DNA of 54,807 nucleotides from Candidatus Aminicenantes bacterium (GCA_046538375.1 JBKHJA010000002.1:1-54807), one strand, 5' to 3'; shown: positions 8,493 through 54,757, counted from the stretch's first letter. Program-made: numbers and translations. Notes: generated from the sequence alone by a model not told the origin.

Positions 8493-8545
8493 ATCTTTGA
8501 TGAAGAAACAATCAAAGTCATTGTTTTGGCCTTTTGGCATCAGGC

Positions 8546-9460: not shown

Positions 9461-9493
9461 CCTTCCATCTCCGTCCGCTTTTGATTTTCTCCT

Positions 9494-9522
9494 AATATAA
9501 TCTCAATGCATTCTTTTGACAA
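9494..9522 (-). promoter_or_regulatory. sigma70-like promoter candidate for the 8546-9460 gene
   Basis: Minus strand reads TTGTCA-N17-TATATT, 8 nt downstream of repeat copy C and about 33 nt before the ATG at 9460. Confidence 0.35.
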
Positions 9523-9526
9523 GACC

Positions 9527-9598
9527 GGAAGCATCTCTAATTCTGTGATATGGGGTGAGGGATGGATTTATACTCATCACAGTTTTGGAAATGCTCCC
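9527..9598. repeat. intergenic repeat family, copy C (palindromic unit)
   Basis: Left arm GGAAGCATCTCTAATTCTGTGATA plus TGGGGTGAGGGATGG. Right arm TCATCACAGTTTTGGAAATGCTCCC. The arms are imperfect inverted repeats, about 19 of 24 by hand. Confidence 0.7.
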
Positions 9599-9614
9599 AG
9601 TCAGTGGAAGCGGG

Positions 9615-9643
9615 TTGACAACCTCTGGCATGAAGAGTAATTT
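9615..9643 (+). promoter_or_regulatory. sigma70-like promoter candidate for the DUF362 gene
   Basis: TTGACA-N17-TAATTT. It is very close to the start codon (GTG 9649 / ATG 9658), so the transcript would have almost no leader. Confidence 0.3.
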
Positions 9644-9648
9644 TCTAG

Positions 9649-37088: not shown

Positions 37089-37852
37089 AAAACATATGGG
37101 CTGTATGCAAAAAAGAAATCAAAACTTACTTCACCTCTCCCATCGCCTATGTAACCATCACCGTATTTCTGGTGTTGGTGGGATTTTTTTTCTACAGCCT
37201 CATCTGGTGGTTCAACTCTCAATCCCTTCAGATGGCCAGAAACCCCTATTACCAGCAGCAGCTCAACATCAACCAGATGGTCTATTCCCCGCTTTTCCAT
37301 AATATCAGCATTATCCTGCTGTTGATGATCCCGCTTTTGACCATGCGGCTTTTTGCCGAAGAAAAGAAAGCCAACACCGATGAACTTCTGTACACCAGTC
37401 CTATTTCTGTCAACCAGATCATACTGGGGAAATATTTTGCTTCTATCTTTGTGCTGGTGGCCATGCTGGTCCTCACCGGAATTCTCTCTATTTTCACATT
37501 TGCTTACGGCAATCCTGAAATGGCTCCCCTCTTGAACGGTTATCTGGGCCTGTTCCTGATGGGAGCAGCTTTTATGGCTGTGGGCATCTTTTTCTCCTCT
37601 CTCACCGAAAACCAGATTGTGGCTGCTATCCTGACCTTTGGCGCCCTCCTTCTGTTCTGGATTCTGAACTGGGCTTCTTATTCTGCCGGAGGGATGTGGA
37701 AGGATGTGCTGAATTATCTCTCTTTCTTCCAGCATTTTGATGATATGACCAAAGGAATTCTGGATACCACGGATGTGGTGTACTACCTCAGTTTCTCCTT
37801 TTTTGGTCTGTTCTTAACTCATTCTGTCATTCAATCGCGAAGGTGGAGGTAA
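37085..37852 (+). CDS. ABC-2 type permease (GldF-like)
   Basis: Six hydrophobic helices, 255 aa. ATGA overlap with the ATPase gene. Confidence 0.82.
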   Translation: MKNIWAVCKKEIKTYFTSPIAYVTITVFLVLVGFFFYSLIWWFNSQSLQMARNPYYQQQLNINQMVYSPLFHNISIILLLMIPLLTMRLFAEEKKANTDELLYTSPISVNQIILGKYFASIFVLVAMLVLTGILSIFTFAYGNPEMAPLLNGYLGLFLMGAAFMAVGIFFSSLTENQIVAAILTFGALLLFWILNWASYSAGGMWKDVLNYLSFFQHFDDMTKGILDTTDVVYYLSFSFFGLFLTHSVIQSRRWR

Positions 37853-37854
37853 AA

Positions 37855-39438: not shown

Positions 39439-40835
39439 AATTCAGGACAACTCTGATTCTGCTTCTGGTTTTTATAGTGCTTCTGGCTTTGGTCTACTTC
39501 TTTGAGATCAGGGGAAAAGGTGAACAGGAGACAGAAGAAAAGCTGGTTGATCTTTCCTCTGATGAGGTCCGGAAAATTGTGTTTAAAAGGGATGATGAAT
39601 CCATCACTTTCAGAAAAGAGGAAGAAGATTGGTTGATCACTGAACCCCTGGAAGCCAAGGCAGACAAATATGAAGTCAACCAGCTTGTGGATAACTTCTG
39701 TCAACTGGGGATAGAAAGAGTGGTAGAAGAAACGGCGGCTGAAGAGGATCTTAAAAAATACGAAATTCCTCAGAAGGAAATTATCCTTCACTTTAAAGCA
39801 AAGGCACACCCGGTCAGGATAAAGGTGGGGATGGAGAATCCTTTGGATAACACGTTTTTTGCCCAAAGAGAAGGTGAACCTAGAATTGTACTCATCCCCA
39901 GCCATCTCAAAACTCATATGGAAAAAAGTGTGTTTGATTTTCGTAAAAAGGATATCTTTTCGTTCGATACAGATCAGGTGAAGAGCATCCGGGTTCGAGC
40001 CAAGGAAAGAAGCTGGCGTGCGCAGAAGAAAGAGGATGAATGGTTTCTGAAAAAGCCGCTGGAATCTCTGGCTGAGACAAGCAAAATCAACAGTATTCTG
40101 AATTCCCTCTCCAGTCTGAAAGCCAAGGAATTTATTTCAGAGAAAAAAAAGGAAGAAGAGATAAAAAAGTACGGACTGGACCGTCCTGACTATGAAATCC
40201 ATCTGATCCTTCCCGCAGCCAGCCAGGAGGCCACCTTTTTTCTGCAGGAAAAAGAAGATAAACTCTACGCCACCACTTCCCTCTCTTCTAAAATCATTGC
40301 TGCTGAGGATACCATCCTTTCTGACCTGGAAAAACAGGTCCAGGAATTGAGAGATAAAGAAGTCGCCCATTTTTACAGTTGGGAGGCAGACAAACTTCAC
40401 ATCAAAAAAGCAGAGCTGGATTGGATGCTCAAAAAAGATGATGAGGGCAACTGGCGGTTTGAATCACCGGTGAAAGAAGAGGCGGATAAAAGCAAGGTGG
40501 AGACTTTTATCCGCAAAATAGAAAGCCTGGAAGCTGATGAAATCATCGATCCTCCTTTGAAACTCAAACATTATGGACTGGACAGTCCTCAGGCTGAAGT
40601 GAAAATCTGGACTGAAGAAGATGAAGAAAAGGGCAAGGAAATCAACATCCTTGTAGGATCTGAAATCATGGAAAAAGTAAAGGAAGAAGAAGAAGAAGAA
40701 GAAGAAGAGGTCAAGCGGGTTTTCATCAAAAACGTCCGATTCGACTATATTTTCAAGGTGGAGGCCAGCTTCCTGGATGAATTTCCCCAAGGTCTCAAAG
40801 ACTGGAAAAAAGCAGAAGAAGAAAAAGAAAAATAG
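39435..40835 (+). CDS. DUF4340-like protein (fourth gene of the GldAFG-type module)
   Basis: N-terminal TM anchor, K/E-rich repeated beta-rich modules, and a position after GldG as usually seen for DUF4340. ATGA overlap. Contains a poly-Glu run. Confidence 0.6.
   Translation: MKFRTTLILLLVFIVLLALVYFFEIRGKGEQETEEKLVDLSSDEVRKIVFKRDDESITFRKEEEDWLITEPLEAKADKYEVNQLVDNFCQLGIERVVEETAAEEDLKKYEIPQKEIILHFKAKAHPVRIKVGMENPLDNTFFAQREGEPRIVLIPSHLKTHMEKSVFDFRKKDIFSFDTDQVKSIRVRAKERSWRAQKKEDEWFLKKPLESLAETSKINSILNSLSSLKAKEFISEKKKEEEIKKYGLDRPDYEIHLILPAASQEATFFLQEKEDKLYATTSLSSKIIAAEDTILSDLEKQVQELRDKEVAHFYSWEADKLHIKKAELDWMLKKDDEGNWRFESPVKEEADKSKVETFIRKIESLEADEIIDPPLKLKHYGLDSPQAEVKIWTEEDEEKGKEINILVGSEIMEKVKEEEEEEEEEVKRVFIKNVRFDYIFKVEASFLDEFPQGLKDWKKAEEEKEK
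40683..40709 (+). repeat. (GAA)8-GAG trinucleotide repeat encoding Glu9
   Basis: Direct reading of gaagaagaagaagaagaagaagaagag, in frame within the DUF4340-like gene. Confidence 0.95.
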
Positions 40836-40888: not shown

Positions 40889-42244
40889 GTGGATAAAAAG
40901 AGGGAAACTCCAGAACTTCTAGAAGATTATTCACTCCAATCCGTTCCCTTAAACAGAAGAAAATCCTGGATCAACCTGGCTGTGATCTGGATAGGGATAG
41001 CGGTGGTCATGTCAGCCATTTTCCGGGGGATGATGATCGGCCTGGGCCTAGGAAAAATATCCAGCGTGATTTTCTCATATCTCCTGGGAGAAATCATCCT
41101 CATTGCTATGATGGGCTTTACCGGTTTCATCGGAGCTAAAACAGGATTTTCCACACCTCTAATCGCCAATTTCTCTTTCGGCCGCCTGGGCGCCATCCTC
41201 ATTTCCCTATCCATCGCTTTTTCCTTGATCGGGTGGTTTGGGGTTCAGGCCGCATTTTTTGCCCGCACCATCCAATTCTACTTTGGTACTCATCTTTCTC
41301 TGCCTCTCCTTTCTTTCTCCTGCGGAATTTTGATGATGATTCCAGCTATCTTCGGTATTCGAGGCTTAAGTGTTTTGAGCTGGATGGCTTCACCGTTTAT
41401 GGTTTTGATCTTTTTATGGGGAATCATAAAGATGGGTTTTCAATTCCTCCCTTCCCCGTGGTTAGTTTCACTGGCTCTCCACCATAAACCCGATCCTTAT
41501 CCTTTGACTTTAGGAGCAGCCGCTTCCATTGTAGCAGGAGGATTTATAGTCGGCGCTACCACCAGCGCTGATATCTTCCGTTATGCCAAACCCCGGCTAA
41601 AAGACATCTTCTCTGCTGCAATATTAGCCATGCTGTGCAGCGCCTTTCTCCATCTGGTGGGTTCTATCTTGGCCATGAATACAGGACTCTACCACGAGAG
41701 GCTTCCTGAACTCATCATCGGCCAGCAATACCTGGGACTGGGATTTGTGGGATTCCTGGTGCTCCTGCTGGCTCAATGGACCACTAATGACAGCAATATA
41801 TATTCCTCAGTGCTGGCATTAAACAATATTTTCAGAGTAAAACGCTGGAAAATCACCGTCATGGCCGGTATTTTTGCCTCCCTTCTCGCCGCCTTCGGTA
41901 TTCTGGAAAGACTTGAACTTTTCCTTGTTATCCTCACTGTGAGTATTGGCCCCATAGGGGGCATATTCATCTGCGATTACTATTTGCTGAAAAGGTTAAG
42001 AAAAAAGAATTTCAGACAGAAATCCTTTTCCAAAATAAGCTATAAGGCTTTAGGCGTTTACATGGTTTCTTTTCTTATCGGCTGGACTACTTCCGGCCAT
42101 CCCTTCACCATCCGAATTTTCCCTTTTTCTGTATTTGCCTTCAACGGCATAATCTCATCTATTTTTCTTTATTATCTGGTTATGAAAATTTTTCCTGACA
42201 AGGAGTCAAACCATGGCTTTAAAACAAGTGATGGAAGTTTATGA
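40889..42244 (+). CDS. NCS1-family (purine-cytosine/hydantoin-type) permease
   Basis: About 12 TM helices, 451 aa, and an N-terminal segment ...SLQSVPLNRRKSW.NLAVIWIG typical of CodB/NCS1 carriers. GTG start is uncertain. Confidence 0.7.
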   Translation: MDKKRETPELLEDYSLQSVPLNRRKSWINLAVIWIGIAVVMSAIFRGMMIGLGLGKISSVIFSYLLGEIILIAMMGFTGFIGAKTGFSTPLIANFSFGRLGAILISLSIAFSLIGWFGVQAAFFARTIQFYFGTHLSLPLLSFSCGILMMIPAIFGIRGLSVLSWMASPFMVLIFLWGIIKMGFQFLPSPWLVSLALHHKPDPYPLTLGAAASIVAGGFIVGATTSADIFRYAKPRLKDIFSAAILAMLCSAFLHLVGSILAMNTGLYHERLPELIIGQQYLGLGFVGFLVLLLAQWTTNDSNIYSSVLALNNIFRVKRWKITVMAGIFASLLAAFGILERLELFLVILTVSIGPIGGIFICDYYLLKRLRKKNFRQKSFSKISYKALGVYMVSFLIGWTTSGHPFTIRIFPFSVFAFNGIISSIFLYYLVMKIFPDKESNHGFKTSDGSL

Positions 42245-43154
42245 TCTTCTGGAAACTCCAAACATAGAAAAAGGAGAAATCCAAGATTTTTTCACCCAAA
42301 AAGGCCTTGACCGATCAGAAACACAATTTCAGAGGGTCAAAGAAGATAAGGGAGAAACCCAGTTTGTGAACATTCATATCAAAGGAAAGGAAGGATATTC
42401 GGAGGCAGGAGAAGCTCCCACCTTGGGAATAATCGGCCGTCTCGGAGGAATCGGCGCCAGACCGCATAAATCCGGACTGGTTTCAGACGCTGATGGAGCC
42501 ATAACCGCTTTATCCGCTGCCGCCAAAATTGCCGACTTGAGGAACAAGGGAGATCAACTCACAGGTGATGTGATGGTAGCTACCCATCTCTGTCCCCACT
42601 CCCCTATCATCCCCCATGAACCTGTTCCTTTCATGGACGCACCGGTAGCCCTGGACACCATGAACCAATACGAAGTGGATGAACGGATGGATGCCATTCT
42701 CTCTGTCGACACCACCAAAGGAAACAGGATCATCAATTGCCGAGGATTCGCCATCTCAGCCACAGTCAAGGATGGGTATATCCTGCGGGTGAGTGAGGAT
42801 CTTTTGGACATCATGCAAACAGTTACCGGCAAACTGCCGGTTGTCTTCCCCATCACCACTCAAGATATCACTCCCTACGGGAACCAGATCTTTCATCTCA
42901 ACAGCATCCTCCAGCCAGCCGTTGCTACTCATGCTCCTGTTGTTGGTGTGGCGATTACGACTGAAGTGGCTGTTCCAGGATGTGCTACGGGAGCCAATCA
43001 TGCATTGGATATGGAAATGGCGGTCAGATTTGTGGTGGAAGTGGCTAAAGCTTTCGGTAGAGCCCAATGCTCTTTTTATGATGAGGAAGAATTCCAAAGA
43101 CTAACCTCTCTTTATGGATCCTTAGAACATTTGAAAACTCTGAGAAAAAAATAA
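42213..43154 (+). CDS. DUF1177 domain protein
   Basis: 313-aa soluble protein whose layout I recognise as DUF1177, a family usually found next to AroM-like genes and permeases. AAGGAG SD. Overlaps the permease end by 32 nt. Confidence 0.6.
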   Translation: MALKQVMEVYDLLETPNIEKGEIQDFFTQKGLDRSETQFQRVKEDKGETQFVNIHIKGKEGYSEAGEAPTLGIIGRLGGIGARPHKSGLVSDADGAITALSAAAKIADLRNKGDQLTGDVMVATHLCPHSPIIPHEPVPFMDAPVALDTMNQYEVDERMDAILSVDTTKGNRIINCRGFAISATVKDGYILRVSEDLLDIMQTVTGKLPVVFPITTQDITPYGNQIFHLNSILQPAVATHAPVVGVAITTEVAVPGCATGANHALDMEMAVRFVVEVAKAFGRAQCSFYDEEEFQRLTSLYGSLEHLKTLRKK

Positions 43155-43223
43155 AATGTCATTGCGAATCCTTCAGGGACCACGCAATCTCATAATCCTT
43201 AAATACAAAAAAGCAATTTTCTC

Positions 43224-43892
43224 ATGGATAAAATAAAAATCGGATTCATTACTATAGGCCAATCGCCAAGAAAAGACCTTATACCTGAAATCAAGCCTTT
43301 TCTGCTTACTCATATAGAAATTGTTGAATATGGCTTGCTGAACCATATGAGGAATGAGGAAATTGAAAACATGAGCCCAGAAGCAGATGAAATCCCTTTG
43401 GTTACACGCTTAAGAAACGGAAGCCAGGTTCAATTAGGCGAGAAGAAAATAGGCGAACTTTTGCCCAAAGCCATCGACTTAATGAAGATCAACATGGATG
43501 TGAATGCTGTGGCCGCCCTCTGTACTCATGATTTTCCAAAAATAAAATCGGCCTGTCCCACCATATTTCCTTATGATTATCTTCAATTTCTTATAAATTG
43601 TATATTAGAGCCAAGAAAACTCGGAGTGGTGATTCCTTTGGAAAATCAATTTGAAATGGCCAAGAAAAAATGGGGATCAGACAGGACTATTGTCGAAGTG
43701 AAATCTCCATACGCCGAAGATAAAACATGGGAAAAAATAGCAGAAAATTTTGCTCAAAAAGAAGCAGGAGCAATCCTTCTTGACTGTATAGGATATAAAC
43801 TAAAGGACAGGCAGGCTATACAAAGATCTATCAAAATCCCCACCCTTCTGCCAAGAACAATCCTTGCCTTCGCTATCAATCAGCTCTTTTAA
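43224..43892 (+). CDS. AroM-family protein (Asp/Glu/hydantoin-racemase-like fold)
   Basis: N-terminus KIGFITIGQSPRKDL is characteristic of AroM-like proteins. Length is 222 aa. Confidence 0.65.
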   Translation: MDKIKIGFITIGQSPRKDLIPEIKPFLLTHIEIVEYGLLNHMRNEEIENMSPEADEIPLVTRLRNGSQVQLGEKKIGELLPKAIDLMKINMDVNAVAALCTHDFPKIKSACPTIFPYDYLQFLINCILEPRKLGVVIPLENQFEMAKKKWGSDRTIVEVKSPYAEDKTWEKIAENFAQKEAGAILLDCIGYKLKDRQAIQRSIKIPTLLPRTILAFAINQLF

Positions 43893-43948: not shown

Positions 43949-45625
43949 CTAAGAGATTCTTTTTATGATAACCAGGGTCATGTCGTCCATTGGGTCAGTG
44001 CCTGCAGTAAAAGCATCCACTTCCTGTTGAATCTTTTCCACCAGTTTCTGGGCTGGAAGCTTGGAATGTTTTTGAATGAGCTTTATCAGTTTCTCCTCTG
44101 TGAATTCTGTGTTGTCTTTGCTCCGGCTTTCAGTTATTCCATCTGTGTACAGAAACGCCATCTCCCCTGGATTTAAGGCAATATCCTTTACTTCATAACG
44201 CGAAGAAGGAAACATGCCCAAGCACAAGCCGCAGCTCTCCAAGCGATGAATTTTCCCCTTCTTATCCAGAATAAGTGGTGGATTATGTCCGGCATTGACA
44301 AACTTCAATTCCCCTGTCTTTTTATTCAATTCTGTGTAGAAAAAAGTGATAAAACAACTGGGTGAAGAGCTGCGCTGGACAAAATCATTCAGCTTACAGG
44401 CCATCTCTTCCAATTTGTATTGAGCGTGAACTTCTGAATGAAGAGAAGCCCTTAAAGAAGCCATAAGAAGGGAAGCACTCACTCCTTTCCCGGAGACATC
44501 AGCGATAACTATCCCCAACCTGGAAGGATCTATAGCGATAAAATCATAATAATCGCCACCCACCTGATAGCATGGAACATTGGATCCGGCAATTTCATAA
44601 TTCTCAAGTTCTGGATTCTCTTTGGGAAGAAAGTCTTTTTGGATCTGGGCAGCAAGAGCCAGTTCTTTCTCCATTTTTTCCTTCTCTATGGATTCTTCAA
44701 AAAGCTTGGCATTTTCGATCTTGACTGCTGCAAGATTGGACAGAAGAGTCAACAGTCTTAAGTCATCATCTGAAAACTGTTCCAAATGAAGTATGCGGTC
44801 GGCATAGACAATGCCTATGATCTCTTTGTTGTTCCATAAAGGAACACACATGGCTGAATGGATGTTGGAGCCGACAATGCTCTGCTGCGATTTAAAACGG
44901 GTATCAGCCTGGGCATCGTGGGTGAGGATGGAGGAATGCTTATCCAGGGCCAGGTTGACTATACTCTGGCTCACCTGAATCTTCTGCTTTTTCAGGTTCT
45001 GGCTGTTTATCCTTACCACTTTAGGGATGAGCTGAGGAGGATGTCCTTCTTTGAGGATCAGAATCCCCCTGTCCATGGGAAGATTCTCACAGATGAGGTC
45101 CATGACATGGTCCAGGAGTTCGTTTAGAGGCTTGTGAAGAATAAGAGCCTTACTGACTTCACTGAGCACCGAAAATGCTTTGTGATCTGTCCTGATCCTC
45201 TCCAGATCAACTGGAGTAGGGGCAGCTTTCAGGGTAGTGTCGATATCCGGCTTTTTCAGGATTTCCTTGAGATTCATTATGGTGTTGATATTGGAAGCAG
45301 AAGAAGGAGTCTGGGTGACTTCAATGTTGGCTGCAAACTTTTTATCAAAGACCACCCTGGTGGAGCCTATAAGGACTTCATCTCCCTTTTTGAGTTCTTT
45401 TTCTGCCTGTATTCTTTTGCCGTTGAGGAAAGTTCCGTTTTTGCTTTTATTATCCCGAACCCCATATCCTTTTTCGGTGGGATAAAAAAAGGCATGATGT
45501 CCTGAAGAGAAAGGATCCGCAATGGAGATGTCGTTATCAGCGGAGCGGCCTATGGATATTTTTTTGTCCGGAAGGGTGAAGGTGAAATCCTCTCCTTCTT
45601 TCGGGTAAATGAACAGTTTAGGCAT
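43949..45625 (-). CDS. FHA - GAF - PP2C (SpoIIE/RsbU-type) serine phosphatase
   Basis: FHA region ISIGRSADNDISIADPFSSGHHAFF...NGTFLNG, a central GAF-like region, and a C-terminal PP2C region (GGDYYDF...IADVSGKGVSASL...TDGITE...DDMT). Length is 558 aa. Confidence 0.88.
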   Translation of the reverse strand: MPKLFIYPKEGEDFTFTLPDKKISIGRSADNDISIADPFSSGHHAFFYPTEKGYGVRDNKSKNGTFLNGKRIQAEKELKKGDEVLIGSTRVVFDKKFAANIEVTQTPSSASNINTIMNLKEILKKPDIDTTLKAAPTPVDLERIRTDHKAFSVLSEVSKALILHKPLNELLDHVMDLICENLPMDRGILILKEGHPPQLIPKVVRINSQNLKKQKIQVSQSIVNLALDKHSSILTHDAQADTRFKSQQSIVGSNIHSAMCVPLWNNKEIIGIVYADRILHLEQFSDDDLRLLTLLSNLAAVKIENAKLFEESIEKEKMEKELALAAQIQKDFLPKENPELENYEIAGSNVPCYQVGGDYYDFIAIDPSRLGIVIADVSGKGVSASLLMASLRASLHSEVHAQYKLEEMACKLNDFVQRSSSPSCFITFFYTELNKKTGELKFVNAGHNPPLILDKKGKIHRLESCGLCLGMFPSSRYEVKDIALNPGEMAFLYTDGITESRSKDNTEFTEEKLIKLIQKHSKLPAQKLVEKIQQEVDAFTAGTDPMDDMTLVIIKRIS

Positions 45626-45638
45626 CTTCCCTTACGCC

Positions 45639-45668
45639 ATTATAAGCGGAAGACAGGAAATATTTCAA
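45639..45668 (-). promoter_or_regulatory. sigma70-like promoter candidate for the phosphatase gene
   Basis: Minus strand reads TTGAAA-N18-TATAAT. It lies only about 14 nt before the ATG at 45625, so the leader would be very short. Confidence 0.3.
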
Positions 45669-45680
45669 CAAAATAGTAAT

Positions 45681-45803
45681 CCTTTCCATTTCCTTGATAG
45701 AGGGTGAGGGATGGGGGGTTGTCAGCACGCTAATTTTCCCCATCCCTCACCTTCTTTAATCAGTATATACTTTTATAATCATCACGGTTTTGGAGATACC
45801 CCC
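45681..45803. repeat. intergenic repeat family, copy B (most complete; contains a perfect 14-bp inverted repeat)
   Basis: The minus-strand core is CCCCCCATCCCTCACCCTCTATCAAGGAAATGGAAAGG (45720-45681). The hairpin is GGTGAGGGATGGGG-N21-CCCCATCCCTCACC (45703-45751). The distal arm is ATCACGGTTTTGGAGATACCCCC (45781-45803). Confidence 0.75.
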
Positions 45804-45856
45804 AAGAAAATAGTAAATATGCTTGTTCACGCAAGATAAAAAGCGTTGTTACAGGT

Positions 45857-48349
45857 TCAGCTTTTCTCCAAGGTTTTGTACAGCTTCCTGCATCTTCTCA
45901 CTTTATCTTCAAAAGGAAGATCATCGATAAGAGGAAGGAGAAACTCTTTTGTGTCTTTCTTTATCATGTTATCGAGAAGCTCCACAGAATAATCAATGGC
46001 CTTTTTTGTTCCCGCACAGATGTTTTGATAAGCCTTGATGATATCGTCATGAGGGTAGATAAGGCTGAGCAGTTCAAAAATCTGTTTGAGCAGTCCAGCC
46101 AAATTATTCTCTAAATGGGGAGCCAGAAGGGCTTTCTTCTTATCGCCTTTTATTTCATGCAGCTCCATCAAAACCAGATAACACTTTCTTATCTTCTGTA
46201 TGATCTCGCTTCTTATGATATTCTCTTGAAATTGAAGCTGAGGATGATTTGATCTCATTTTGTACATGGCTTCTATGATTTCAGCCTCCACCTCCTCCTG
46301 ATCTTTTCTCATTTCCATAGTTAACAAATCTGCTGCTCTCTGAGTTCCTATCCGGGATAAGATATCAGGAATGGCTTTCCGTAAACCAAGTTTTTCTTCC
46401 TGGTCTCCCAGATAATCCTTCAAGGTTCCTGCGATTTTCGTTCCGTACTTCACTAATGCCTTACTGGCTCCCCGCTGGGTGGAAGGCTTTTCCAACTGCT
46501 GGATTATGAGAGGAACAAACTCTCTTCTTTTCAGTTTTCCTGCACTCTCTACGGCATAACGGACAACATCTGGCGATTTATCCTTTAACAATTTACTGAG
46601 GTCATTTATGACCGGAGAGTTAGGATCCATCATGCCCAGAAGCTTGGCTGCTTCCATTCTTGAGACCTCATCTCCCTCCTCTTTCCTGCTGACAATTCTA
46701 TCTATATGCTCCTTCATCAACTCCTGGTAGACATCCAGAGACATGATTTCCTTGACCTGGGAATCCAGGGTTTCCTCATCCAGAGATTCATCCAGTTCCG
46801 GGATCAAGACTTCTCCATCCAACTCCAGAAGAGAATCCATGGAGCTGGCTCTGACCTCATCGGATTTTTGGGATATGATTTTTTTCAGCTCAGGGCTCAT
46901 TTTCCTGCTCTTTATCAGGTCAAACAGGTTCATGGCGTAAAGAACCGAACTCCTGTCTCTGCTGTGGAGGGTATCGAAAACCAGTTTGGCCATGTCCACA
47001 TCCATCTTTTCTCTTACAAATTTGTCAGCATCCTGCCATTTGATTCTCAATTTTTCCTTCACTATGCCCACATAATCCCTGTTGATCCTAACGATGAGAA
47101 AAATCCAGAGGGCAGTAAAAACTAGGGTGACGAAGCTCATCTGCCGGACAGAAAAATGCAAGACCGTAAAGAACAGAAGGATGAGAAGAGCACTGAAACC
47201 TTTGGCAAACTTGTTGATGAACATATCGATAAACACCTTGGCCCTGTACTTGACACCAGGAGAAACCGGAATATACAGGAGCTCTCTCACCGATTGGCTC
47301 AAAGAATGAGCCAGGCTCTTGTCTCCTCCTTTGATGACAACCGCCCAATAGATCAAGTAGGCCATGGGAACCAGAAAAATTGCCGCTGAACTTATCACTA
47401 AAAAGAAAGGAGCAATAAGAAGAGCCGTGCGCATGCCAAAATTCTTCAAAATGCGGCTGGTGGCTGAGACATGGAGAATGTAAGAAAAGACAAGCAGGGC
47501 GGTAAAAAAAGTCCCCAGAAAAGATGTCCGGGAATCTATTCCCGCGTAAATCCGTTCCACCACTGTGTTGAATTGAAAATCGACCAGGGTGGTGACCACG
47601 ATAGCAGAAGCCATGATTCCGGCCAGAGTCATCAAATAACGGTTTTTCTTCAACAAAAGAAAGCTCTCGCCATATCCAATCTTGGCCTTTCTTTTTTCTC
47701 TAGGCTTCTCTGTTTCTTCCTTTTTCTCCTCTTTCTCCTCAGGCTGAAATCTGTACACGGAATTGACGATGACCAGGCACACAAGCAGCATGACCGGACA
47801 AATCAAAAGAAGATCTTCTGTTCCCATAATCTGAGCCAGACAAGAGGCCAGCACAGAGCCAGCGATCCCTCCCAGAAGTCCTCCGCTGACAAAAAAGCCC
47901 ACCAGCCTTTTGGCCTGACGAGGATTATAGATATCATTGACTAAAATCCAGAATTGAGTGACTGATGCGGCAACAAAGATATCTGACCAGAACCAATAGA
48001 TCATGGAAATCCAGGGCCACTGACTCTTGAACAACCACCAGAAAAGGATGAGATTGGTGATAAAAAATGCAAGAGACAGGGAGATGAAAAGCTGGCGCCT
48101 CAGAGTGTGCAGCAGCTTGGAATTAAGAGTGACCACAAATCCGATCAAAAGAGCTGTCAAAAGATAAGCATAGGGAAGTCTTTCCGAGGTCAGCCATCCC
48201 AGGAAAAGAGAGACCTTAACCGGTTTTATTATGTACGCTGGACAAGTGATGAGGAAAAAATAGAAAAACATGAGCAGAGAAGGGATGGTTTCCCCGGGCC
48301 GTATATCCACCAGCCGGGATAAAACTTTATACAAAGGATTTTCATCCAT
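45857..48349 (-). CDS. TLC/Npt-like (ATP:ADP-antiporter-family-like) membrane transporter fused to a C-terminal HEAT-repeat domain
   Basis: The N-terminus VDIRPGETIPSLLMFFYFFLITCPAYIIKPVK resembles TLC-family starts and is followed by about 11-12 TM helices. The C-terminal ~400 aa consist of helical HEAT/PBS-lyase-like repeats (SPDVVRYAVESAGKL...). Length is 830 aa. Confidence 0.6.
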   Translation of the reverse strand: MDENPLYKVLSRLVDIRPGETIPSLLMFFYFFLITCPAYIIKPVKVSLFLGWLTSERLPYAYLLTALLIGFVVTLNSKLLHTLRRQLFISLSLAFFITNLILFWWLFKSQWPWISMIYWFWSDIFVAASVTQFWILVNDIYNPRQAKRLVGFFVSGGLLGGIAGSVLASCLAQIMGTEDLLLICPVMLLVCLVIVNSVYRFQPEEKEEKKEETEKPREKRKAKIGYGESFLLLKKNRYLMTLAGIMASAIVVTTLVDFQFNTVVERIYAGIDSRTSFLGTFFTALLVFSYILHVSATSRILKNFGMRTALLIAPFFLVISSAAIFLVPMAYLIYWAVVIKGGDKSLAHSLSQSVRELLYIPVSPGVKYRAKVFIDMFINKFAKGFSALLILLFFTVLHFSVRQMSFVTLVFTALWIFLIVRINRDYVGIVKEKLRIKWQDADKFVREKMDVDMAKLVFDTLHSRDRSSVLYAMNLFDLIKSRKMSPELKKIISQKSDEVRASSMDSLLELDGEVLIPELDESLDEETLDSQVKEIMSLDVYQELMKEHIDRIVSRKEEGDEVSRMEAAKLLGMMDPNSPVINDLSKLLKDKSPDVVRYAVESAGKLKRREFVPLIIQQLEKPSTQRGASKALVKYGTKIAGTLKDYLGDQEEKLGLRKAIPDILSRIGTQRAADLLTMEMRKDQEEVEAEIIEAMYKMRSNHPQLQFQENIIRSEIIQKIRKCYLVLMELHEIKGDKKKALLAPHLENNLAGLLKQIFELLSLIYPHDDIIKAYQNICAGTKKAIDYSVELLDNMIKKDTKEFLLPLIDDLPFEDKVRRCRKLYKTLEKS

Positions 48350-50849
48350 ATGGTTTAAAACCAGGATAAGTCTTCAAGAGACTGCGGAATCTTTTTACTC
48401 TTTCCTCCTCAGAGAGGTCCTCAACAACAGGAAGGATGATATCTTTCAATTCTTTTTTCAAGATGTTATCAAGGAGTTCCACTCCATAACCTACCGAATC
48501 TTTGGTTCCATCCTTCACACTCTGATATGCCCTGATGATGTCCTCGCGGGGATAAACAAGTTCCAAAAATTTGAAAATATCCGAGAAGGCTGCGGCCAGA
48601 TTTCTGGCAGTCTTCTCTCTCATTTCCTCTTTTTTATCCTCATACCGTGAATCATGGGACTGGATGATCATCTGATAATATTTTTTCACTTTTTGGATTA
48701 TTTTTGCTTCTATCACTTCTCTAAAGAACAGGATATCAGTATTCTCAGCCCGAATTTTGTCCAGAGCTTCGATAAGTTCCTCTTCCAGATCTTCGCTGTT
48801 TTCCGCCAATTCCCGGCACAATAAATCTGCTGCATCTTGACTGCCGATTCGGGCTAAAACCGAGGCTGCGGCTCTTCGCACCTCAATATTCTCTTCCGGG
48901 TCCCCCAGATAATCTGACAGAGTGCCCACAATTTTTGAGCCGTACTTTTTGAGCGCAGCACTGGCGTCCTCTCTGGTGACAGGATTCTCTAATATCTTGA
49001 TTATGGATGGAATATATTCTTTTCGTTTCAGTCTGGCCGCACTTTCCACTGCATATCTGCCCACTTCCGGTGATTCGTCATCAAGAAGCTCTTCCAGATT
49101 GTCGAGCAGAGGCGAAGACTGATCCATCAAGCCCATGGCCTTGGCCACTTCCATCTTGGCTGTCTCTGCTTCTCTCCCGGTCTCGGTCACCACTTTTCCC
49201 ATATAGTCCTTCATCACCTTCTCATAAACATCCAGCGACATGATTTCTTTGACATTTTTCTCCAGGTCTTCTCCCTCCAAATACTCTTCCATCTCCGGAT
49301 ACCAGGTGGTTTCTTCGACTTCCAGAAGTGTTCCCAGCGAAGCCGCTCTTATCTCATCTGATTTGTAAGAAATCAATTTTTTGATCTCTGGAGTGAGTTT
49401 GTCCTGCTTTATCAAATCGAAAAGATGCATGGCATACAGGACTGAACTCCGATTTTTACTCTCCAAAGTATCAAACACCAGCTTGGTGTAATCCATATCC
49501 ACTTTTTCTGCCAATATTTTGTCAGCCCGGTCCCACTTCATTTCCAGATTTTGTTTGACAGTCCCCACGTATTCATTGCTGATTTTAAGGTTGAGTAAAA
49601 TCCAACCCATGATAAAAACAGCGGATGCCAAAGACACCAGCCGCACCGGCGGTATCCCCAGAGGAAAGAAAAGCAGGATCATAAGTATCACCGCTCCTAG
49701 ACCTTTGGCAAACCGATTGAGGAACATATCTATGAAAATCTTGGCTTTGTACTTGAGTTGGGAAGAAACAGGAATATACAGAAGCTCTCTCACGGATTGA
49801 TTGAGGGAATAAGAGAGGCTTTTGTCGCTTCCCTTTAGCAGGACGGCGAGATAAATAGTGATGAATACAGCGATTCCCAATGAACAGGCAAGGAGGACTA
49901 TTGGAAAAAGCATCAAAGCCATGCGGATACCGTAACGCTTTATAAAACCGCTGGTCATGAAAAGCTGAAGAAAAAAAGGAAGAATTAACAGCCCGGCATT
50001 AAAGTATCCAAAGAAAGAGGTTAAGTTTCCGCTTACCGAAGGCGTATCTTTGATGACCTTGTTGAATTGAAAGTCTATCAGGGTGGAAACGATCATGGTG
50101 ATGGCCACCATACCCGCCATAAGCTTCAGGTAATAATTCTTTCTTACTGTATGGAAACACTCCCCAAATCCCACTTTGGTTAAGTTCTTCTCCCTCTCCC
50201 TGAATTCTCCCTGGCTTTTAGGGGTACCAGGCTGCCCCCTCTTTTCCAGGATAAATATCCCATACACCACCATGACACACAAAGCCAGAAGCCCGCAGGA
50301 AATTAGCAGAAGATGGTGAGGTGTTTCAGAGGGAGCTAAAAATCCCGCCACCATTCCTCCAGCCACTCCTCCCAATATGCCCCCGCTTCCGAAGAAGCCA
50401 ATCAGCCTTTTGGCTTCTCTGGGATTGAACACATCGTTGACCAACATCCAGAATTGAGTCATTAAGACTAAAATAAAAATGTTGGCCCATATCCAAAAAA
50501 CGAGAGGCAGCCAATCCCAACCCAGGGGGAAAAGAAGCCAGAAAATGAGTGCGTTGAGCAGGAAAAATAAGAGGCTGGAAATGAACAAAATTTGTCTTTT
50601 AATTCTGACCTGGAGTTTTGAATGCAAGGCCACCACAAAGCCCATAAGAACGGCTGTCAACAAATAGGCTAAGGGAAGATTGACCGCTCCCAGTGTTTCT
50701 AAATAACTGGCATTTCTCAAAGATTTTATGATGGTGTGAGGGGCGGTGATCAAGAAAAAATAAAAGAAAAGAAGAAATGCCAGCGAAGCTTCGCCGGGTT
50801 TAATCTCGACTACAGGAGAAAGGATTTTCTGAAGACGGTTTTTTGCCAT
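48342..50849 (-). CDS. TLC/Npt-like transporter::HEAT-repeat fusion, paralogue of 45857-48349
   Basis: Co-linear similarity to the neighbour over the full length (VEIKPGEASLAFLLFFYFFLIT, SVLYAMHLFDLIK, VKEIMSLDVY, SPEVGRYAVESAARL). Length is 835 aa. 8-nt overlap with the downstream paralogue. Confidence 0.6.
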   Translation of the reverse strand: MAKNRLQKILSPVVEIKPGEASLAFLLFFYFFLITAPHTIIKSLRNASYLETLGAVNLPLAYLLTAVLMGFVVALHSKLQVRIKRQILFISSLLFFLLNALIFWLLFPLGWDWLPLVFWIWANIFILVLMTQFWMLVNDVFNPREAKRLIGFFGSGGILGGVAGGMVAGFLAPSETPHHLLLISCGLLALCVMVVYGIFILEKRGQPGTPKSQGEFREREKNLTKVGFGECFHTVRKNYYLKLMAGMVAITMIVSTLIDFQFNKVIKDTPSVSGNLTSFFGYFNAGLLILPFFLQLFMTSGFIKRYGIRMALMLFPIVLLACSLGIAVFITIYLAVLLKGSDKSLSYSLNQSVRELLYIPVSSQLKYKAKIFIDMFLNRFAKGLGAVILMILLFFPLGIPPVRLVSLASAVFIMGWILLNLKISNEYVGTVKQNLEMKWDRADKILAEKVDMDYTKLVFDTLESKNRSSVLYAMHLFDLIKQDKLTPEIKKLISYKSDEIRAASLGTLLEVEETTWYPEMEEYLEGEDLEKNVKEIMSLDVYEKVMKDYMGKVVTETGREAETAKMEVAKAMGLMDQSSPLLDNLEELLDDESPEVGRYAVESAARLKRKEYIPSIIKILENPVTREDASAALKKYGSKIVGTLSDYLGDPEENIEVRRAAASVLARIGSQDAADLLCRELAENSEDLEEELIEALDKIRAENTDILFFREVIEAKIIQKVKKYYQMIIQSHDSRYEDKKEEMREKTARNLAAAFSDIFKFLELVYPREDIIRAYQSVKDGTKDSVGYGVELLDNILKKELKDIILPVVEDLSEEERVKRFRSLLKTYPGFKPYG

Positions 50850-50881: not shown

Positions 50882-51229
50882 TTAGTCCTTAAAAAAGCTA
50901 CCCAGGGCCGTTTCCTCATTATCGAAAATCTCAAGAACATTGGTGAGCATGGTCACCTGGAAGACAAGATAGAGTTTCTTGGAAATTTTTGCCAGCTTCA
51001 GCTTCCCCCCCAAATTGTTGGCCGATATATAGCTGGCTAAAATCTCCCCTACCCCGAAGCTGTCTATAAATTCAACATTCTGGAAATTGAGAAGAATATT
51101 CCTTTTGCCGCCTTCCAACTGCTCCTTAACCAGTTGATGAAGAGTCACATCTTTTATATCCGAACGCCTGATTTCACCTTCTATGTCAAAGATCACCACG
51201 TCGTCTTTCTCTCTGGTGTTTATGACCAT
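50882..51229 (-). CDS. STAS-domain protein (anti-sigma-factor-antagonist type)
   Basis: From ATG 51229 (GAGGAGAA SD) the product is MVINTREKDDVVIFDIEGEI....NILLNFQNVEFIDSFGVGEIL, of 115 aa. This is the typical SpoIIAA/RsbV layout, with the conserved DS(F/S)G phosphorylation-loop position reading DSFG. Upstream track codons are rejected. Confidence 0.8.
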   Translation of the reverse strand: MVINTREKDDVVIFDIEGEIRRSDIKDVTLHQLVKEQLEGGKRNILLNFQNVEFIDSFGVGEILASYISANNLGGKLKLAKISKKLYLVFQVTMLTNVLEIFDNEETALGSFFKD

Positions 51230-51481
51230 TTTCTCCTCGCCTCTCTTCTTTAAGCTTTTATCAGAAGAAATATGTAAAGTCAAATATCCCCCCTTTAAGC
51301 ATTTCCTCACTAAATTTCCTGGATGATATTTCACTCTACATCCGCTCTTATGAATCAAGAAATGCCCATAAAAACGGCCAATATATAGACCTGCCTGGTT
51401 TATTCTGATATAAATGTTAATGAAAAGAGTTGACTTGAAGGGGAGAAACTATAATTTTACAAGCTTAGGATACAACCTGGG

Positions 51482-52567
51482 ATGAGCACCATGATCAGAT
51501 CAACAAGAAAAGTCAAAAAATTTACAGCTCTCCTCCTTTCTGTTTCCCTCATCACTGTTTTTCTTTATGGCAGCAGCACACAATGCGTATGGAGTGATAT
51601 CGAGAAGATTGTGGCTGTGGGAGATATTCATGGCGATTACAAAAACTTTGTAAAAATCTTAAAGGGGACAAAACTGATCGATGAACAGCTCCATTGGACA
51701 GGGGGAAAAACTCATCTCGTCCAAACCGGTGATATCATGGACAGAGGGCCTGATGCCAAAAAAGTGTTTGACCTTTTGATGAAACTGGAGGAAGAAGCAG
51801 AAAAAACAGGGGGAAAAATTCATGTTTTGATCGGAAACCACGAAGAGATGAACATCACGGGTATAGCCTTTGACTACGCCGGCTATGTCACTGTGGAGCA
51901 GTTTGTTTCCTTTCTTCCTGAAAAATACAGAAAAAAGAAAAAGAAGGAATTTACAGAAAAAACGGGAGAAAATGAGATAGATCAGGATAAGTATTTAGAT
52001 AACAGCTTGAAGAAATATTGGCTGGAGCTTATGAAGGAAAAATCAGCCCGAAAGAAGTACGTGGATAATTTCAATGACAAATATGGAAAATGGATTCTTT
52101 CGCACAATGCGGTAATAAAAATCAACCACGTCATATTTGTTCACGGAGGTATCAGCAGGCAATTCTCCACCTGGAAAATAGAGGATATAAATGAGCAGCT
52201 TCAAGAGGAACTCTGCTTTCTGCAAAAAGCAGCCAAACGTCCCCGGTCATTCAGCGGTTCTTATAATCCAAAAATTGTCTACAAGAGCGAAGGGCCTCTC
52301 TGGTACAGGGGTCTAGCTCTTGAGGATGAACAGAATCTCAAACAAGAAGTGGATAAAATTTTGGAGAATCTGGGAGCAAAATACATGGTCATTGCCCACA
52401 CCCCACGTGCTGGCAGCAGGATAGTCTCCGAAGAGTACATGAGCCGATTCGATGGAAGGATATGGATAATCGACACAGGAATATCAGATTATTACGGCGG
52501 ATTCTTGAGCGCTTTGATCATCGAAAACGAAAATTTCACTCTGTGGAGGCCTGAGCATGAAAAATAA
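51482..52567 (+). CDS. secreted PPP-family metallophosphoesterase (Ser/Thr phosphatase-like)
   Basis: Signal peptide FTALLLSVSLITVFLYGSS. Motifs GDIHGD, GDIMDRG, GNHE and VHGG in canonical order. Length is 361 aa. Confidence 0.82.
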   Translation: MSTMIRSTRKVKKFTALLLSVSLITVFLYGSSTQCVWSDIEKIVAVGDIHGDYKNFVKILKGTKLIDEQLHWTGGKTHLVQTGDIMDRGPDAKKVFDLLMKLEEEAEKTGGKIHVLIGNHEEMNITGIAFDYAGYVTVEQFVSFLPEKYRKKKKKEFTEKTGENEIDQDKYLDNSLKKYWLELMKEKSARKKYVDNFNDKYGKWILSHNAVIKINHVIFVHGGISRQFSTWKIEDINEQLQEELCFLQKAAKRPRSFSGSYNPKIVYKSEGPLWYRGLALEDEQNLKQEVDKILENLGAKYMVIAHTPRAGSRIVSEEYMSRFDGRIWIIDTGISDYYGGFLSALIIENENFTLWRPEHEK

Positions 52568-53471
52568 AGAGACCCCAGCGGTGATGTTTTCTTTGCTTTT
52601 GACAAGCGGCCTCTTCTTTCACTGTCACTCCTCCAATATCAACCAAGAAGAGGAGGAACGAAAAAAAATAGAACATTACTTAAAAACGGCTGAAATTGTA
52701 ACTGTGGAAAAAGATGAACAGGCCGGGAGAACAGCTCCCTGGAGAATAAAATTGGATGACGGGAAAAAAGCGCGTCCAGGTCTTTTCAAGCATTTAGACC
52801 GGAGAAGACCTTCCCTTTTTGCTGACAGCTACAAATATGAATTAGCCGCTTATGAACTGAATAAACTTCTTCATCTCAACATCGTTCCTCCTGTGGTGGA
52901 AAGAGAAATAGAGGGCAAAAAAGGAGCTCTTCAGTTGTTCATCCAGGATGCCCTACCAGAAAGCAACCGGAAAAGAAGAAACATTGCTCCTCCTCGCTTG
53001 GAAGACCACCAAAACATCCTGGAGATGATCAACGTCTTCGAGAACCTGGTTTATGATGAGGAGTGTTTTGACGCCGAGGATACGTTGATAGACAGGAAAG
53101 AGTGGAAAGTGTGGCGGGTGGATTTCTCCATGGCCTTCTCCCCTACCTCAGGTCTAATTCCCGGCTGCAGAATCAGCCGCTGTTCCAGGAAGCTCTATCA
53201 AAATCTGGTGGAGCTGGACGCAGATACAGTGAGAGCTGAGCTTAAGCCTTATCTTAACCCACAGGAAATCGATGCTGTTCTGAAAAGGAAGAGCATCATC
53301 ATAGATAAAATCAAAAAATTGATTGAGGAAAAAGGAGAAGATTCAGTCCTCTTCCTTCAAAAGCATAAAGGAGGGCTTTCATGGAAAAAACATCCTCAGG
53401 TCTCATTCATAAGACACTCAGAATTTTCACTGTTATCCACCCTGACGAGGTCCCCACAGCGCTGCTTTTGA
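52557..53471 (+). CDS. secreted/anchored hypothetical protein, possibly with a PI3/4-kinase- or Fam20-like kinase fold
   Basis: N-terminal hydrophobic segment AVMFSLLLTSGLFF follows K-rich residues. The segment YKYELAAYELNKLLHLNIVPPVVERE resembles the AAFHLDR-LGF--VPP helix-loop of Fam20/PI4K-type kinases as I recall it. A later segment LVYDEE....TLID....WRVDFSMAF is reminiscent of a catalytic-loop/DFG arrangement. The fold assignment is speculative. Confidence 0.5.
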   Translation: MKNKETPAVMFSLLLTSGLFFHCHSSNINQEEEERKKIEHYLKTAEIVTVEKDEQAGRTAPWRIKLDDGKKARPGLFKHLDRRRPSLFADSYKYELAAYELNKLLHLNIVPPVVEREIEGKKGALQLFIQDALPESNRKRRNIAPPRLEDHQNILEMINVFENLVYDEECFDAEDTLIDRKEWKVWRVDFSMAFSPTSGLIPGCRISRCSRKLYQNLVELDADTVRAELKPYLNPQEIDAVLKRKSIIIDKIKKLIEEKGEDSVLFLQKHKGGLSWKKHPQVSFIRHSEFSLLSTLTRSPQRCF

Positions 53472-54757
53472 CCGTTAATGTTTTTTTGCTCCTCACAGCC
53501 TATTACATCATAAAACCAGTGAGAGATGCCTTGATGCTGGAAAGCTGGCCCCCGGAGGTCAAAAGCTATCTTTCTGCGGCCATAGCTGTCCTGCTTATTT
53601 TTGTGGTTAAAGTCTTCAGCAGGATTGCCTCCAGTTTTCCGCGGCAGAAGTTGGTTACCTGGGTAACACTCTTTTTTATTTCCAACTTGGGACTTTTTTA
53701 TATTTTGTATTTATCAGGTGTGGGCTCTGGAGCTATGGGAATTATCTTTTTTTTATGGGCAGGAATCTTTAACTTGATTGTTATCGCCCAGTTCTGGGGC
53801 TTCGCTAATGATGTGTACACCGAGGATGAAGGAAAGCGGCTTTTTCCTTTGGTGGCTTTCGGGGCCACTTTTGGAGGCTACGCCGGAGGAAAGATAACCG
53901 ATTCTCTGGTGGTGCTCCTGGGAATCTTCCAGCTCATGCTGGTATCAGGAGCCATATTGGGGATTTGCATTCTTTTCACCTGGATCATTCATCGACGGGA
54001 GATCAGGAGAATCCATGTTAAACCCGTTAAACCCATGGAGAAAGAAGAATTCAAACCAGAAGAACAGGAAAAGCCTCTTGAAAAGGGAGGAGCATTTCAA
54101 CTGCTTTTTAAAAACCGATATCTTCTTTACATCGCCTTTTTTGTGCTGCTTATGAATTTCATCAACACCAATGGTGTTTTTATGCTGGACACAGTGGCCC
54201 AGGATGCTGCCGCTAAAGCCGTAGAAACAGGCACAACAGGAGGACTGAGTAAAGGACAATTCCTGACTAAATTTTATGCTGGGTTTTACAATATCATGAA
54301 TATCTACGCCATGTTTATCCAGCTGTTCGTGGTCTCCAGGATTTTCAAGTGGTTTGGAGTCAGAGTGGCTATCTTCTTTTTACCTGCCCTTGCTCTGGGG
54401 GGATATTTTTGTATCAGTTTGGGTGCATTTCTGGTCCTGGTGAAATGGGTCAAGGCCTTTGAGAATGGAACCGATTATTCTCTTATGAACACCACCCGCC
54501 ATTCCCTTTTTCTTATAACCACCAGGGAAGAAAAATACAAAGCTCAAGCTGTCACCAAGACTTTTTTCCACCGGTCAGGCGATGTTCTTTCGGCGGTGAT
54601 GGTTTTCCTGGGTACAACTTATCTGGCATTCAATGTGGAAAAATTCGCTGCCTTCAACGTGGTTCTGGTGGTTATTTGGATATTCATCGGCATTTTAATC
54701 TTCCGAGAACACAAAAGACTGTCCGAAGCCAGAAAATTTGCTCAGGTGGCCCTTTAA
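53381..54757 (+). CDS. TLC/Npt-like transporter (membrane half only), third paralogue
   Basis: The N-terminus LIHKTLRIFTVIHPDEVPTALLLTVNVFLLLTAYYIIKPVRD aligns with the first residues of the two HEAT-fused paralogues. About 11-12 TM helices, 458 aa. Confidence 0.65.
   Translation: MEKTSSGLIHKTLRIFTVIHPDEVPTALLLTVNVFLLLTAYYIIKPVRDALMLESWPPEVKSYLSAAIAVLLIFVVKVFSRIASSFPRQKLVTWVTLFFISNLGLFYILYLSGVGSGAMGIIFFLWAGIFNLIVIAQFWGFANDVYTEDEGKRLFPLVAFGATFGGYAGGKITDSLVVLLGIFQLMLVSGAILGICILFTWIIHRREIRRIHVKPVKPMEKEEFKPEEQEKPLEKGGAFQLLFKNRYLLYIAFFVLLMNFINTNGVFMLDTVAQDAAAKAVETGTTGGLSKGQFLTKFYAGFYNIMNIYAMFIQLFVVSRIFKWFGVRVAIFFLPALALGGYFCISLGAFLVLVKWVKAFENGTDYSLMNTTRHSLFLITTREEKYKAQAVTKTFFHRSGDVLSAVMVFLGTTYLAFNVEKFAAFNVVLVVIWIFIGILIFREHKRLSEARKFAQVAL

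Follow-up and report, generated by a model that had tools for sequence, protein, structure and literature searches.

The window analysed here is a 54,807-nt stretch of DNA from a Candidatus Aminicenantes bacterium (GCA_046538375.1, JBKHJA010000002.1:1-54807). Two adjacent minus-strand genes in it, A and B, almost certainly encode anciently duplicated, co-translated members of the NTT-HEAT family, each joining a 12-helix inner-membrane carrier of the NTT/TLC fold to a cytoplasmic HEAT alpha-solenoid. A wider model, in which A and B are nucleotide/phosphate carriers gated through their HEAT tails by a STAS partner switch and serve a set of exported proteins encoded alongside, is put forward tentatively and is given slightly less than an even chance of holding as a whole. 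The pair is arranged as follows.

48342-50849, minus strand: NTT-HEAT paralogue A, 835 aa.
49575-50849, minus strand: membrane half of A, residues 1-425, 12 transmembrane helices (from Pfam TLC and MFS_1 matches, fold and topology).
48342-49574, minus strand: cytoplasmic half of A, residues 426-835 (from the HEAT_2 match and the solenoid fold).
45857-48349, minus strand: NTT-HEAT paralogue B, 830 aa, with the membrane half at about 47081-48349 and the cytoplasmic half at about 45857-47080.
48342-48349, minus strand: 8-nt overlap of A and B, ATGGATGA, within which the A frame stops and the B frame starts, consistent with translational coupling.

A and B were aligned collinearly over 834 columns, giving 47% identity and 70% similarity, and both contain the blocks SSVLYAM(H/N)LFDLIK, VKEIMSLDVY and SP(E/D)V.RYAVESA. 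An initial annotation of this DNA, which had described two open reading frames (ORFs) of 835 and 830 aa as collinear paralogues overlapping by 8 nt, was correct in coordinates, shared blocks and overlap alike. The junction reads ...CCATATGGATGAAAAT; among 39 related tandem loci, most have the two genes overlapping by 4 nt or lying at most 15 nt apart. On a neighbour-joining tree (without bootstrap) the position-1 copies and the position-2 copies formed two separate clades, which argues that the duplication is old and that both copies have been kept. Single-copy lineages were basal or sister to these clades on the same tree. Fixed differences between the two paralogue clades were found at 7 positions only, for example E145 against Q in the EAKR motif. 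The possibility that one paralogue is a degenerate pseudo-transporter was rejected, since all invariant residues are kept, with similar conservation, in both clades. Co-translation and long retention would suit a hetero-oligomer as well as a pair of specialised carriers. Chance does not account for the tandem arrangement, since dozens of related genomes have the pair along with its neighbours.

The membrane halves matched Pfam TLC at 58.3 bits (A) and 68.1 bits (B; cutoff 21) and MFS_1 at 39 and 58 bits, respectively. Plastid and Chlamydia ATP/ADP translocators were the only solved relatives by sequence (9j3n/9j3j, E ~1e-6). An AlphaFold2 model of A, built from a 57-sequence alignment, had a mean pLDDT of 78 and was confident in the membrane half and in residues 555-830. 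The top Foldseek matches of this model were 9j3n, 9j3m and 9j3l (target-normalised TM-scores of 0.71, 0.68 and 0.77, E ~1e-8). Many MFS folds were matched too, with generic MFS carriers ranking behind the NTT structures (E ~1e-5). The proposed likeness of the membrane half to TLC/Npt carriers was therefore borne out by hidden Markov model scores, sequence matches and predicted fold, and an assignment to an unrelated MFS family was disfavoured by the rank of the NTT structures.

Comparison with 9j3n showed the NTT motifs FW..N(D/E), EAKR, KS..Y.L..S.(R/K)E..YIP, K.K.K..ID and RF.K to be retained. Residues K42, R/K45, W121, Q132, W134, N138, R148, D259, Q261, E355, P360, K366, K370 and D374 were fixed or nearly fixed in both paralogue clades; conservation is claimed here at the level of motifs, not of the published AtNTT1/CpNTT1 mutagenesis positions. 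The layout is that of the MFS, two six-helix bundles with a long cytoplasmic central loop (residues 201-239) carrying 9-12 Lys and Arg. Over the 12 helices, Lys plus Arg on inside and outside loops numbered 30 and 4 for A and 34 and 5 for B. This bias of alternate loops places both termini, and hence the tail, in the cytoplasm, contrary to what an extracytoplasmic HEAT half would require.

The tail was matched by HEAT_2 at 54.8 bits in A (residues 613-696) and 54.1 bits in B (cutoff 27.7). In A it consists of degenerate HEAT-like helices at about 441-540 followed by a confident alpha-solenoid at about 555-830. When the C-terminal half of A was modelled by itself (pLDDT 77), it matched solely alpha-solenoids, namely HEAT-like alphaRep, armadillo/importin-alpha and the PP2A A subunit, and alphaRep/HEAT matches were also obtained by sequence; the HEAT assignment of the soluble half was thus upheld by both scores and fold. 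A hidden enzyme domain in this half was rejected, as solenoid matches only were found. Residues 441-540 were modelled with poor confidence yet have a mean column conservation of 0.63-0.75; this stretch resembles either HEAT repeats that have degenerated or a segment for interaction. With the C-terminal half of A as query, 3933 cluster representatives were retrieved, 973 of them at E<1e-10. Nine of ten sampled tail homologues were TLC-HEAT or MFS_1-HEAT proteins, four of these with a cNMP_binding domain, and the tenth (P0200) was a STAND NTPase with HEAT repeats.

The fusion itself is already published and is not new. NTT-HEAT and NTT-HEAT-cNBD proteins (cNBD, cyclic nucleotide-binding domain) are described as monophyletic and widespread in bacteria, with no function assigned, in the accessible text of Major, Embley and Williams (2017, Genome Biol Evol, PMC5381601), where it is also proposed that a cAMP-bound cNBD could tune ATP uptake by the carrier. 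The statement that HEAT-fused TLC/Npt proteins have no characterised role agrees with the literature searched, in which no function of NTT-HEAT was reported, though the family itself has been published since 2017. The closest relatives, all from Aminicenantes metagenome-assembled genomes (MAGs), are annotated as "Npt1/Npt2 family nucleotide transporter", "AAA family ATP:ADP antiporter" or "ATP/ADP translocase/HEAT repeat protein". As far as its accessible text goes, the published family (PMC5381601) has the same N-terminal PF03219 carrier and C-terminal PF13646/PF02985 HEAT region as A and B. Along its whole length the C-terminal half of A aligns with the tails of TLC-HEAT(-cNBD) proteins of other phyla, and 24 columns are invariant from clade to clade. 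Family members elsewhere measure about 920-1150 aa, against about 830 aa in the clade of A and B, and have a downstream or fused cNBD, in contrast to the tandem duplicate, upstream STAS, FHA-GAF-PP2C phosphatase and RsbW-like kinase found in this clade. In the accessible text of PMC5381601 the STAS/PP2C association is not mentioned and Acidobacteria appear as a taxon-table row only.

A small signalling protein is likewise encoded beside the gene in the wider family. In a clade of about 925 aa, the next gene after the carrier in all four loci (L004-L007, at about 6001-10500) encodes a cNMP-binding protein of 141-159 aa, and the one after that a response regulator of 160 aa; histidine kinases or response regulator-PP2C proteins are often encoded nearby. 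The sources of this clade include a Zixibacteria MAG and an Aminicenantes MAG, and the homology list adds Calditrichia and Handelsmanbacteria. A small switch protein beside NTT-HEAT is thus a theme of the whole family, with a cNBD there and STAS here.

The switch genes flanking the pair in the window, and a promoter match between them, were placed as follows.

50882-51229, minus strand: STAS protein of the anti-sigma-factor-antagonist type, 115 aa, first gene of the run.
43949-45625, minus strand: FHA-GAF-PP2C serine phosphatase of the SpoIIE/RsbU type, 558 aa (Pfam FHA, GAF and SpoIIE, the last at 178 bits).
45639-45668, minus strand: sigma-70-like promoter match TTGAAA-18-TATAAT, 11/12, in the gap between B and the phosphatase gene (a consensus match only).

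The STAS gene stops 32 nt before the start of A, directly upstream of the pair as had been reported. Its start was corrected from the TTG of a 158-aa ORF to the ATG at 51229, because the 115-aa form is 79-80% identical to 115-aa orthologues and this ATG is preceded by GAGGAG. The protein scored 46 bits with Pfam STAS and 55.5 bits with TIGR00377 (cutoff 53.45). The block FIDSFGVGEILA, including the Ser of DSFG, was at least 95% conserved in 54 sequences; this Ser corresponds to the one phosphorylated in SpoIIAA. STAS was about 80% identical between genomes whose carrier A orthologues share 57-59% identity with A. In the phosphatase, the metal-binding PP2C motifs GGDYYDF, ADVSGKG, NAGH, TDG and DD.T were conserved in 56 sequences. 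An RsbW-like HATPase_c_2 kinase was found in related loci (87 bits) with N and G boxes conserved. Catalytic or phospho-acceptor motifs are therefore conserved in all three switch proteins, and the predicted side of the tail, the cytoplasm, is the side on which STAS, PP2C and kinase reside. No sigma factor gene or other obvious output was found in the conserved block of related loci.

Two further observations concern the phosphatase gene. The gap that separates it from B (45626-45856, 231 nt) is unusually long, most related loci having 13-86 nt. In CP070825.1, a complete Aminicenantes chromosome (L001/L012), the gene after the pair (L001 13054-14222) is called as a 390-aa FHA-GAF protein lacking the SpoIIE domain, which may reflect a frameshift or truncation.

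The distribution of the fusion and its neighbours, proposed for survey in the initial annotation, was scanned in species-representative genomes. At least 512 relatives were retrieved and the best 80 examined, all from Aminicenantes/Acidobacteriota MAGs, with ORFs labelled by phmmer. Recurrent STAS-NTT-HEAT-PP2C linkage was found. STAS lay directly upstream in 54/67 evaluable loci, at a spacing of 15-43 nt in 52 of those 54, and PP2C directly downstream of the last NTT-HEAT gene in 54/62; a tandem NTT-HEAT pair was present in 39/74 loci. The recurrent upstream position lends strong comparative support to the earlier suggestion that STAS is a candidate partner of the pair. Among 38 species loci with wide flanks, STAS was present in 37, PP2C in 34, the u304 family (described below) in 30, Metallophos in 29, the TLC-only carrier in 22 and the kinase in 14, the last count being limited by flank length. 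An exported block, comprising kinase-like protein, Shelph phosphatase and TLC-only carrier, was found in 32 of the 37 wide-flank loci with STAS.

On three related contigs with Pfam-labelled gene calls, STAS, two NTT-HEAT genes and FHA-GAF-(SpoIIE) stood in a row; nearby were an RsbW-like HATPase_c_2 gene and, in divergent orientation, a gene for a TLC-only carrier. In a deeper-branching single-copy lineage, STAS, NTT-HEAT, FHA-GAF-SpoIIE and HATPase_c_2 were convergent with Metallophos, TLC-only and two u304 genes. The eight-gene set thus stays together in two arrangements, divergent and convergent, and its survival of this rearrangement points to function rather than mere ancestry. An intermediate relative, P0158, was considered as a cassette outside Aminicenantes and rejected, since its clade proved to be Aminicenantes again, a single-copy variant. 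The STAS-linked type was accordingly seen solely in Aminicenantes/Acidobacteriota among the best 80 of at least 512 relatives. The tandem form linked to STAS, PP2C and kinase, together with its link to exported kinase-like proteins, is undescribed in the searchable literature and appears to be new. Many MAGs labelled 'uncultured Eubacteriales bacterium' (for example those of L008-L011, L014, L015 and L018) hold loci 50-60% identical to Aminicenantes cassettes; the label looks like a placeholder rather than real taxonomy.

The exported block of the window lies in an operon divergent from the STAS gene.

51230-51481, no strand assigned: intergenic region between the STAS operon (minus) and the phosphatase/u304/TLC-only operon (plus), from the gene layout.
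51482-52567, plus strand: Shelph-type protein phosphatase of the PPP family, predicted to be exported, 361 aa (Pfam Metallophos).
52557-53471, plus strand: u304, a FAM20/PI4K/HipA_2-like kinase-fold protein, predicted to be exported, 304 aa (from the family profile).
53381-54757, plus strand: TLC-only carrier C, 458 aa (Pfam TLC, 43.5 bits).

The intergenic region was searched for an RNA element or riboswitch that would name a ligand; no Rfam match was obtained at gathering scores, and noise only at E<=1. The Shelph protein matched a Shewanella protein-tyrosine phosphatase (PDB 2z72/1v73, E=1e-31), contains the motifs GDIHGD, GDIMDRG and GNHE, and has an N-terminus resembling a signal peptide; hydrophobic N-termini are conserved in its orthologues. 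Those of L025, L028, L046, L085 and L086 are longer, at 530-640 aa, and so carry an extra domain.

The window copy of u304 had no Pfam match by itself. A profile of 25 family members matched FAM20A, FAM20B and FAM20C (E=1e-6 to 4e-5) and the type II kinase PI4K2B (3e-3); HipA_2 was matched by 14 of these members, PI3_PI4_kinase by 10 and Fam20C by 10. The family is unannotated, about 270-300 aa long, has 1-4 paralogues per locus (L008-L086) and shows signal-like N-termini in all members. Its alignment separates two subfamilies, one of which keeps the catalytic-loop pattern NEDRxxxN...IDHSRSF; that of the window has lost the first part, and the window copy, as judged by its motifs, may be a pseudokinase. 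Bacterial homologues and ATP supply are both left untreated in a review of Fam20 (PMC7948968). The u304 ORF extends about 30 codons beyond the end of its orthologues (...GEDSVLF), so that its last 91 nt (53381-53471) are shared with the beginning of the TLC-only gene; as it outruns its orthologues, the stop codon has perhaps been lost or shifted in this genome.

Carrier C showed 30% identity with A's membrane half (E=1e-31) and 57% with its own L002 orthologue. It consists of TLC alone, in keeping with its earlier description as a third copy with the membrane half only. It departs from the family signature at E355 (His), YIP (LIT) and ID (TK), and no PDB sequence match was obtained for it.

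Other genes of the window lie on the far side of the FHA-GAF-PP2C phosphatase gene. Beside it, at 40889-43892 (plus strand), is a cluster of a cytosine/purine-type permease, a DUF1177 protein and an AroM-family protein; L040 and L063 likewise have an AroM gene in this adjacent position. At 36162-40835 (plus strand) an ABC ATPase, an ABC_transp_aux/DUF7088 protein and a DUF4340 protein stand in a row, the last with a poly-Glu run near its C-terminus. This cluster is an uncharacterised ABC-associated system.

In the model favoured here, the cargo of A and B would be an organophosphate anion of the adenine-nucleotide type, probably moved in exchange, in the manner of characterised NTTs. The HEAT tail would be a docking platform through which the partner-switching module gates transport, with STAS docking on the cytoplasmic solenoid of A and B and its phosphorylation state being set by the RsbW-like serine kinase against dephosphorylation by FHA-GAF-PP2C. 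The controlled traffic of nucleotides between cytoplasm and periplasm would then serve the exported kinase-like and phosphatase proteins. This last step is preferred because the locus conserves a TLC-only carrier, FAM20/PI4K-like proteins and a Shelph phosphatase.

A stronger version would have the locus encode a system for phosphorylation outside the cytoplasm that brings its own source of energy. ATP export against ADP and phosphate, by the TLC-only copy and/or the A/B pair, would fuel the exported kinases, Shelph would oppose them, and the STAS/PP2C/RsbW switch would gate the supply through the HEAT tails. Plastid NTTs exchange ATP against ADP plus phosphate, and PDB entry 9j3m is titled ADP/Pi bound; such an exchange would leave no gap in the mass balance of kinase and phosphatase cycling outside the cytoplasm. 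The case for ATP export is one of synteny, and this version is rated as a long shot.

Several results weigh against the favoured model. A and B are only 17-20% identical to solved NTTs, and the NTP/NDP exchanger model TIGR00769 of NCBIfam scored 48.6 bits for A and 53.3 for B, against a cutoff of 387.2. Substrate specificity may for these reasons differ from that of NTTs, and judged by sequence A and B are NTT-like rather than canonical NTTs. The inter-domain geometry of the A model is unreliable (pTM 0.54), with low confidence for residues 441-540. No RsbW-like kinase was found by tblastn inside the 54,807-nt window. The window ends 50 nt past the TLC-only gene, and the syntenic loci L002, L010, L054 and L057 continue with kinase-like paralogues and HATPase_c_2, so the kinase of this genome probably lies beyond base 54807. 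Orphan paralogues related to A (L033, L045, L049 and L072) are found without STAS or PP2C. L033 and L072, with flanks of 6-7 kb, have no STAS, PP2C or exported block, while L045 and L049 are short contigs on which only the absence of an upstream STAS can be judged. Since L033 shares its MAG with the full cassette L025, some genomes carry an extra unlinked copy. The exported block was absent within 7 kb in 5 of the 37 STAS-linked loci, and the four loci of the ~925-aa clade have no exported kinase or phosphatase neighbours, so that a periplasmic link is at best specific to the clade of A and B.

Four other explanations were weighed against this model. A and B (and C) could scavenge extracellular nucleotides, NAD or similar cofactors set free by necromass in sediments, as proton symporters or exchangers. 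The STAS/PP2C/kinase module would then only adjust uptake to the energy or stress status of the cell, and the kinase-like proteins and the phosphatase that are exported would act on other substrates. Net importers of many nucleotides and cofactors are known among characterised NTTs (accessible text of PMC5381601), the Aminicenantes MAGs stem from sediment and subsurface samples, and the cytosine/purine-type permease is encoded a few kb away in the window. The exported phosphatase could also process extracellular phospho-compounds, but its nearest match is a protein phosphatase rather than a nucleotidase. Moreover, the permease is not part of the conserved block, and the kinase fold of the exported partners is left unexplained. 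Scavenging was accordingly considered unlikely, though it keeps some weight. It is also conceivable that the carrier half senses a ligand without net transport, as a transceptor or scaffold, and that the HEAT tail anchors or sequesters STAS or the RsbW-like kinase, so that the protein is an input or output of a switch controlling a regulator elsewhere. NTT-HEAT genes always stand among signalling genes (histidine kinases, response regulators, cNBD, PP2C, STAS), the conserved block encodes neither a sigma factor nor an obvious output, non-canonical STAS proteins often have non-sigma targets (PMC8256260), and high conservation with poor modelling of residues 441-540 is as expected of an interaction segment. 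However, strong purifying selection acts in both paralogues on all the NTT signature residues along the substrate path, which real transport explains more easily, and a purely sensory or scaffolding role was judged quite doubtful.

A third proposal, that a signalling nucleotide such as cAMP/cGMP, a c-di-NMP, (p)ppGpp or Ap4A is moved as a signal and sensed by the GAF domain of the phosphatase or the cNMP-binding protein of the other clade, was rated very unlikely. It draws on the GAF domain in the linked phosphatase, on the cNMP_binding protein invariably linked or fused in the distant clade, and on the suggestion of cAMP-bound cNBD tuning ATP uptake, as given in the accessible text of PMC5381601. 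GAF domains, however, bind many ligands, the reading is one of domain co-occurrence only, and no cyclase or phosphodiesterase gene was seen in the conserved block. Finally, the pair could be a lineage-specific duplication of a housekeeping carrier, with neighbours adjacent by ancestry and not linked in function. All examined loci come from one class-level lineage, and the counts are inflated by this shared ancestry. Against this stand the survival of the gene set through the divergent-to-convergent rearrangement, its persistence across carriers only 34-60% identical, and spacings typical of operons (15-43 nt or overlapping); the absence of any functional link was considered highly improbable.

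NTT carriers count as a hallmark of energy parasitism. The Aminicenantes cassette gives a concrete handle on why free-living bacteria keep hundreds of NTT-HEAT genes. Canonical NTTs, such as those of Chlamydia pneumoniae (NTT1) and Arabidopsis (NTT1; structures 9j3n, 9j3o, 9j3j, 9j3l and 9j3m; TC 2.A.12), have in common with A and B the 12-helix MFS-type fold and the signature motifs. A and B differ from them in the added 400-aa cytoplasmic tail, the free-living host and the low identity given above. In the endoplasmic reticulum and Golgi, the ATP/ADP exchanger AXER/SLC35B1 supplies ATP for the secretory kinase FAM20C. By analogy, the locus would likewise pair an exchanger with FAM20-fold kinases outside the cytosol, and the degenerate u304 subfamily would recall the pseudokinase partner FAM20A. 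The carrier family differs from that of AXER, and the compartment here would be a diderm periplasm. If ATP were fed to exported kinases, the textbook view of a periplasm free of ATP-driven chemistry would be challenged.

The STAS-PP2C-GHKL kinase triad, its kinase being seen in related loci, is that of partner switches with non-sigma outputs (SypE/SypA, BtrU/V/W and RbaV/W/Y; archetype RsbU/V/W). As in other non-canonical partner switches, no sigma factor is encoded in the locus (PMC8256260). The candidate target differs from theirs in being a HEAT-tailed membrane carrier encoded between the STAS and phosphatase genes, and the phosphatase has FHA and GAF inputs; no precedent for such a target was found in the literature searched. 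If STAS does gate the carriers through the HEAT tail, partner switching would gain a new class of output, and the presence of a solenoid tail beside a small sensor protein, cNBD in other phyla and STAS here, would be explained. A likeness on the carrier side is offered by SLC26/SulP, in which an anion carrier has a cytoplasmic STAS domain needed for function (PMC8256260). Historically, it was this family that tied STAS to transporters. The STAS domain is fused there, whereas here it is a separate, phosphorylatable protein of the anti-sigma-factor-antagonist type beside a carrier of different fold, and contact between the two would be made in trans, through the HEAT solenoid.

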